Under the pieces are notes generated by a model. That model did not search any database, was not told the DNA's origin, and was given only the letters and a program-made list of their open reading frames with translations. Positions 1-1,032 of a stretch of 25,475 bases of DNA are shown here, one piece after another. Each line of letters starts with the position of its first letter. The stretch's first letter is position 1. Source of the DNA: a virus; UHGV virus genome UHGV-0146066. One strand, given 5' to 3'. A program made the translations under genes and the position numbers.

Positions 1-360
1 AATCTGCTGCATGGAGAGGAGCAATTTGTCTCAGCCGATGCCGGCTACCAAGGGGCGCCACAGCGCGAGGAGCTGGCCGAGGTGGATGTGGACTGGCTGA
101 TCGCCGAGCGCCCCGGCAAGGTAAGAACCTTGAAACAGCATCCACGCAAGAACAAAACGGCCATCAACATCGAATACATGAAAGCCAGCATCCGGGCCAA
201 GGTGGAGCACCCATTTCGCATCATCAAGCGACAGTTCGGCTTCGTGAAAGCCAGATACAAGGGGTTGCTGAAAAACGATAACCAACTGGCGATGTTATTC
301 ACGCTGGCCAACCTGTTTCGGGCGGACCAAATGATACGTCAGTGGGAGAGATCTCACTAA
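1..360 (+). CDS. insH: IS5 transposase InsH, C-terminal part (5' truncated by window edge)
   Basis: Frame 1 from base 1 reads [40 protein letters not shown]...[15 protein letters not shown], which matches the remembered InsH C-terminus. The ORF track lists only the 82..360 portion. Confidence 0.92.
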
Positions 361-506
361 AAACTGGGGATAACGCCTTAAATGGCGAAGAAACGGTCTA
401 AATAGGCTGATTCAAGGCATTTACGGGAGAAAAAATCGGCTCAAACATGAAGAAATGAAATGACTGAGTCAGCCGAGAAGAATTTCCCCGCTTATTCGCA
501 CCTTCC
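1..506 (+). mobile_element. IS5 insertion sequence, 3' portion (left part lies outside the window)
   Basis: Sequence matches the remembered IS5 right half, ending in the terminal repeat CTTATTCGCACCTTCC at 491-506. It is followed by CTAG at 507-510, a typical IS5 4-bp target site. Confidence 0.9.
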
Positions 507-1032
507 CTAGAACTTCCCAGATACTATTAAGCTGAAATTCAGATTCGTTTTTACACTCATCATCTTCATGTTCGATGTTAATCCCGATGGAATCGACTAC
601 CCCACGGAAAACAGGGTAAGTGGTTTCAACCTTGCCCGTGTTAGGGTTCAGGAAAACCATCTCGATTTTCACATCAGATTTATCGAATTGCTTGTTACGA
701 ATCAAGGTAATGTATTCCTCGCGAACGTTAGAAACAGTTACGTTGATCCCGTTGTTGTTGATCTCCTTCTCTTCGGTATTCGATGAGATTTGAAGAAAAT
801 CACCCGTTGCGAGATACGTAAAACCGTTATAGTCCAAATCGAAATACCCATCTGTAAGCCGTAGAACGTCCCCTGACGCGGTGACTGCTTCGATAATGTG
901 AAACATCGATCCAGTGGAGAAAAGTTGCGGTAGCGTCAATCTAGATACATTCTGCCCTGTCTGGTCGTTGTAGACCTCGATGAAGTCCAGATTGGTGCAT
1001 AGTTTGCTGAATGATTCTTGAATAGTTGCCAT
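507..1032 (-). pseudogene. Phage distal tail / tail tip protein gene, N-terminal ~175 codons, interrupted by IS5
   Basis: ATG at 1032-1030 overlaps the upstream stop (TAATG coupling) and has a GGAGA Shine-Dalgarno. Translation MATIQESFSK... runs into IS5 sequence at 506/507; the tail of track ORF 469..1086 is IS5-derived. Confidence 0.7.

Follow-up and report, generated by a model that had tools for sequence, protein, structure and literature searches.

Insertion of IS5 into the baseplate-hub gene of a hicB-integrated Escherichia coli prophage and its probable effect on the tail

Introduction

Does an insertion sequence at the edge of a phage-like contig mark a prophage that has lost its tail, and which gene did it hit? 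This question is raised by a DNA stretch of 25,475 nt (hereafter the window, meaning the whole stretch that was analysed), in which one end of an IS5 element abuts a shortened open reading frame of a phage tail region. Prophage decay through IS insertion is textbook knowledge, and a preliminary description of this DNA, made from its sequence alone, had proposed that IS5 interrupts a tail-tip gene of a likely defective prophage. Here, we compare the window with related prophages and examine the junction, the state of the element, the identity of the gene and the probable consequences of the insertion. The account that we favour, with a probability of about 0.8, is that IS5 has hit the baseplate-hub gene of a prophage residing in hicB and that this prophage is probably tail-defective.

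Results

The left edge of the window carries the end of the insertion sequence, its target site and the interrupted gene:

1..506, plus strand: right-hand 506 bp of IS5, 505/506 identical to the IS5 copy of E. coli PEC41
491..506: right terminal inverted repeat of IS5, 16 bp, CTTATTCGCACCTTCC, from direct reading and alignment to the PEC41 IS5 end
507..510: CTAG target site (the YTAR target of the IS5 family), one copy visible, abutting the IS5 right end
469..1032, minus strand: truncated baseplate-hub gene, from the list of open reading frames and alignment to 217-aa homologues

The single mismatch to the chromosomal copy of PEC41, which is annotated as 'IS5-like element IS5 family transposase', lies at position 481. 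The Ins5A DDE transposase is represented by its 119 C-terminal residues (1-357) and its stop codon (358-360); PF01609 is recorded on the transposase gene called at the start of the window. The 16-bp terminal repeat of IS5, GGAAGGTGCGAATAAG, is found as its reverse complement at 491-506, identical to the end of the PEC41 element. At the corresponding position, the uninterrupted prophages of E. coli UTAK-14 (L002) and H2 (L004) read ...GCGTTTTTAT-CTAG-AACTTCCC..., with one CTAG only, and the identity of the window with both begins exactly at 507 in the junction alignment. Direct reading and the alignment of relatives thus bear out the earlier claim of a terminal repeat ending at 506 with a CTAG beside it. 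The event resembles IS5 insertions in E. coli genes and cryptic prophages in its near-identical IS5, its 16-bp repeat and its CTAG (YTAR) target. It differs from them in that one end is visible and in that the insertion site is absent from complete genomes, the IS5/hub junction being found in none of the 5426 complete E. coli genomes searched.

The whole window corresponds to one complete ENA metagenome contig of the SPAdes type (ERZ650938 NODE_323_length_25475), so that both of its ends are assembly break points rather than biological ends. The left end of IS5 is missing from the window because the contig breaks off inside the element; the piece at 1-506 is cut by the contig end and not truncated in vivo. 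IS5 matches are present in thousands of E. coli records, and a short-read assembler would have failed to resolve such a multicopy repeat. Beyond the contig end, and hence not seen in the window, lie the left end of IS5, the other CTAG copy and the 3' part of the hub gene. Exact-pattern searches gave no match for the left junction in JGI metagenomes and none for the right junction in JGI metagenomes and GTDB representative genomes.

At the opposite end, the window runs into bacterial DNA:

25400..25475, minus strand: fragment of the host gene hicB, residues ~77-101, 100% identical over 25 aa (tblastn) to the hicB 5' fragment flanking the H2 prophage

Direct reading places the prophage/chromosome junction at ~25398-25400. 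In strain H2, an element of ~35 kb splits hicB, and both of its ends share a 9-bp core, TTTAGGTTT. The junction sequence of the window differs from that of H2 (CATTCGGGTGCC vs. CATTTAGGTTTGCC). Since the right end of the window lies in hicB of E. coli, where the H2 prophage is also integrated, the element is an integrated prophage, and this junction confirms its status independently of the IS5 argument. The homologous region was detected in 56 of the 5426 complete E. coli genomes, in the chromosome every time. Together with the hicB junction, this exclusively chromosomal distribution upholds the view, originally argued from the insertion itself, that the element resides as a prophage in an IS5-carrying enterobacterial chromosome. 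Some part of positions 476-25475 is matched by 5327 of the 5426 genomes, a widespread match that we infer to sit in the hicB end of the window. The phage structural set within the window comprises terminase, portal, capsid, tube, tape measure and Dit genes; in relatives, integrase and lysis-type genes (a serine recombinase and a D-Ala-D-Ala carboxypeptidase-type gene) are located beyond the IS5 insertion point.

The interrupted reading frame starts with an ATG at 1032 and runs through 175 native codons (1032-508), followed by 12 codons encoded by IS5 and a stop at 471-469. IS5 joins within codon 176 of 217, which converts D176 to G and adds 11 further IS5-encoded residues. In intact homologues of 217 aa, reading continues for 42 codons past the CTAG, so the insertion lies inside a gene, of which 81% remains in the window; an intergenic position, the one finding that would have undone the original interpretation, is thereby ruled out. 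The initial estimate of about 175 N-terminal codons before the junction also proved exact.

Which protein does this gene encode? Its neighbours on the upstream side are as follows:

1032..1592, minus strand: distal tail protein (Dit), 186 aa, matching phrog_1302 'distal tail protein' (7.5e-16), with a weak match to the PF21430 pb9 B-domain
1643..3997, minus strand: tail tape measure protein, 784 aa, a single uninterrupted open reading frame matching phrog_13674 (6.4e-71)

Dit, which is 97.8% identical over its full length to the H2 protein, lies directly upstream of the interrupted gene in the operon, its stop codon overlapping the start codon of the latter. The gene order in relatives is tail tube, gp38-like protein, tail assembly chaperones, tape measure, Dit, hub, DUF6950 (139 aa) and a 1258-aa protein with Phage_Tail_Tip and GpJ C-terminal receptor-binding domains, after which come the lysis genes and the serine recombinase. 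The intact protein matches phrog_2048 'tail protein' (E 2.5e-27) over residues 49-216. The match to PF09931 ('baseplate hub protein, N-terminal attachment domain'; Phage_phiJL001_Gp84_N / DUF2163) scores just below the gathering cut-off of 26 bits, at 24.8 bits with the intact protein and 25.1 bits with its truncated form (E ~2.5e-5), and several close homologues carry precomputed Pfam hits and NCBI names of the type 'DUF2163 / baseplate hub domain-containing protein'. Searched by sequence against PDB chains, the hub gave no match even at E values up to 10. The AlphaFold model, for which 16 homologues were used, reaches a mean pLDDT of 67, with values of 70-89 over approximately residues 1-80 and 110-140 and below 50 over residues 174-217. 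With this model, Foldseek returned matches at probability 1.0 and E values from 4e-7 to 4e-4 to the 949-residue tail-tip chain of T5, which we take to be the hub protein pb3, to the DT57C hub, to a 292-residue chain of the RcGTA virion and to baseplate chains of JBD30 and the marine siphophage R4C. Taken together, gene order, PF09931, phrog_2048 and the predicted-fold matches identify the gene as encoding a small baseplate-hub protein of a siphovirus-type tail, part of the tail-tip complex.

The label 'tail-tip gene' used at the outset therefore holds in the broad sense, as the hub belongs to the tip complex and follows Dit; it does not hold in the sense of a GpJ-like tip or fibre protein. We rejected the latter identity because the GpJ-like gene is found two genes further downstream in relatives, beyond the IS. 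Within the limits of a model of moderate confidence, the predicted fold is like that of the N-terminal domain of T5 pb3, of the RcGTA hub (g13) and of the R4C and JBD30 proteins, and the position directly after the distal tail protein is shared with siphophage hubs including lambda gpL. In contrast, the protein is 217 aa long, compared with 949 aa for T5 pb3 and 267-292 aa for the RcGTA and R4C hubs, it has no PDB match by sequence, and it possesses a conserved C-terminal motif of its own (R180, H182, D185, H188, R189, GNE, FF, W206, N207, W212). A Pelagibacter phage relative of the hub was labelled 'minor tail protein L' by its depositors. Proteins of the lambda gpL type carry a C-terminal cysteine cluster that coordinates an Fe-S centre. 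The only cysteines of the present protein are residues 12 and 160, with none in the C-terminal 57 residues; we thus do not file it as a member of the gpL family, although it would work like a hub.

The remaining genes in the window appear undamaged. For each of the 25 further genes annotated in the H2 prophage, from Dit through to the LprI-family gene near att, the window contains a counterpart free of frameshifts and premature stops. For the tape measure, tblastn against H2 recovered the N-terminal 292 residues only, and the reading frame in the window consists of 784 unbroken codons. The expectation that the genes outside the insertion are intact has therefore been substantiated for every gene within the window.

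Several features of these genes deserve mention. Identity to H2 is uneven: the large terminase (15397-17301) is 58% identical and the N-terminus of the tape measure (1643-3997) 63%, with neighbouring genes at 90-100%, a patchiness that suggests module exchange by recombination. A gp38-like adhesin gene (4738-5244; PF21721) and a gene for a 1166-aa fibre with Gp34_trimer and Peptidase_S74 domains (5943-9443; 76% identical to the H2 protein) lie upstream of the tail tube and chaperone genes, or between them, instead of following the tip gene. Over its first ~160 residues, a 277-aa protein (9525-10358) is ~28-30% identical to the 157-aa tail tube protein (5413-5886), and this part may represent a paralogous tube-like domain. 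Between divergently arranged genes of the early region, ~1.2 kb (19960-21177) contain no open reading frame of more than 59 codons; this interval is unannotated in H2 as well, and Rfam and tRNA scans of the whole window, this interval included, gave no match. Finally, the att-proximal end of the prophage, a typical position for cargo ('moron') genes, carries a lysozyme-inhibitor LprI-family gene (24383-25150; 255 aa) with a signal-peptide-like N-terminus.

Discussion

Our analysis points to the loss of a conserved part of the baseplate hub. An alignment of 16 homologues, the most distant at 48% identity, has 46 invariant columns, and 16 of these fall within the deleted residues 176-217 (R180, H182, D185, H188, R189, G193, N194, E195, D197, F199, F200, G204, W206, N207, E209 and W212). 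By this alignment, no other stretch of the hub is as well conserved in the family. Because the 42 lost residues hold 16 of the 46 invariant positions, loss of hub function is likely. The simplest reading of a segment that is this conserved and at the same time modelled with low pLDDT would be that it forms a contact surface within the tail-tip complex. By analogy with lambda, T5 and other siphoviruses, in which the hub is essential, and given the conservation of the deleted C-terminus, the prophage is likely to be defective.

We propose the following course of events. IS5 transposed into a CTAG in the hub gene of a siphovirus-type prophage of ~35 kb located within the chromosomal hicB gene of E. 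coli, and 42 C-terminal residues were replaced by 12 encoded by the IS. The truncated hub would then fail to complete the tip complex, in which Dit, hub, DUF6950 and the GpJ-like protein would be arranged around the end of the tape measure. In addition, a polar effect of the 1.2-kb IS on the genes that follow, those for DUF6950 and the GpJ-like tip protein, is probable. Through hub truncation and this likely polarity, the assembly of functional tails should be blocked. After induction, such a prophage would produce heads but no functional tails and would persist by vertical inheritance only; its remaining genes, being intact, could still be expressed.

One could object that the insertion is real but tolerated, with residues 1-175 holding the whole hub domain, the C-terminal tail being dispensable and the virions remaining infectious. 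The structural data would seem to allow this, as both the part of the model folded with confidence and every structural match are confined to approximately residues 1-170, residues 174-217 being predicted with low confidence, and as the PF09931 match spans only residues 45-149. However, the missing residues are those with the 16 invariant columns, the phrog_2048 alignment extends to residue 216, and all 22 near-full-length homologues that are at least 85% identical to the query retain the C-terminus. Even with a working hub fragment, polarity of the 1.2-kb IS on the downstream tip genes would probably persist. We therefore regard a tolerated insertion as unlikely and retain loss of hub function as the better reading.

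Another view would place the defect before the insertion: the whole family could already be domesticated and non-infectious, either resembling a gene transfer agent or dependent on a helper, so that IS5 would not be the cause. No repressor, replication or integrase gene was recognised within the window, and the structural proteins are closest to lineages of the RcGTA and R4C type. Among cultured phages, the nearest is Escherichia phage DCP80, whose proteins are 43-44% identical; phiHAP-1, R4C and Rhodobacter phages are among the more remote relatives of the capsid. DNA of the tail region had no match among 50,697 phage records, which would also fit this view. Nevertheless, relatives possess a full gene set, with large terminase, portal, capsid, tail, an endolysin-like gene and a serine recombinase. 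They also occupy different chromosomal sites, hicB in H2 and, in UTAK-14, a position adjoining ycdY and not hicB, which suggests that the family is mobile now or was so recently. Mosaicism of the kind seen here (TerL at 58% identity to H2, neighbours above 90%) is expected of an actively moving temperate phage. Prior domestication thus appears improbable, and we maintain that the IS5 insertion accounts for the proposed defect.

In PEC41 (L001), the tape measure gene of a prophage of the same family contains a complete IS5 (L001:8553-9760), flanked unequally by TTAA to its left and TTAG to its right. As the annotated hub gene of this prophage measures only 459 nt, this copy also seems to be decaying.

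It is very improbable that the junction arose from faulty metagenome assembly, or that it is confined to a minority of cells, the dominant prophage copy being intact. The window is indeed a SPAdes-type contig ending in a multicopy repeat, and its junction occurs in 0/5426 complete genomes, but the break falls exactly at the terminal base of IS5 beside a canonical CTAG, ends which a chimeric join would not respect, and the identical junction was assembled independently in another sample, ERZ27315999 (L005:4036-4216), a MEGAHIT-style contig produced by another assembler from another allele, with two residue differences. Some intact copies may nevertheless coexist with the interrupted one in the metagenomic population.

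The insertion in the window is joined by a further event at the same position. In two other metagenome contigs (L006:1200-1301 and L007:1174-1299), the left end of ISKpn26, an IS5-like element oriented the opposite way, abuts this CTAG in the hub gene. With IS5 and ISKpn26 at one CTAG, the site has been hit at least twice independently. It may accordingly be a hot spot for IS insertion, to be read with the scope of the comparison in mind: the window contains 39 CTAG sites, and truncated products were examined for the hub gene only. IS5 insertional hot spots are known, for example, upstream of glpFK, bglGFB and flhDC. The present site is similar to these in that one tetranucleotide was hit repeatedly (by IS5 on two alleles and by ISKpn26). 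In contrast to them, it lies within coding sequence, and the effect would be inactivation, not promoter activation. Literature searches on IS5, prophage tail genes and hot spots found nothing specific. It is tempting to go further and to consider the CTAG at codons 175/176 a true hot spot of the IS5 family, through which recurrent, site-specific IS insertion would domesticate these elements into tail-defective, vertically inherited prophages; we put this forward as a tentative idea that is somewhat doubtful at present.

Two other observations concern the same site. Three contigs from draft genomes of E. coli isolates (L008-L010; GCA_030732485.1, GCA_030732435.1 and GCA_030732515.1) end 8 nt before the end of this CTAG, which hints at a repeat, perhaps an IS, inserted there. 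In an 859-bp ENA contig (P0048), the homologous hub ORF ends ...WEVLD-LSLIHI, two bases past the same CTAG. As the Nextera adapter CTGTCTCTTATACACATC translates to LSLIHI, this contig end reflects adapter contamination.

Overall, the finding is one of ordinary IS-mediated prophage decay, a known phenomenon, and provides one more example of IS elements eroding prophages. For annotation, it means that the contig is to be described as a prophage integrated in E. coli hicB whose baseplate-hub gene is disrupted by IS5, and not as a viable phage genome. What goes beyond routine is the presence of two different IS5-family elements at one CTAG in independent samples. If this recurrence reflects a structural hot spot or selection, the prophage family would offer a convenient natural system for the study of IS-driven prophage inactivation.
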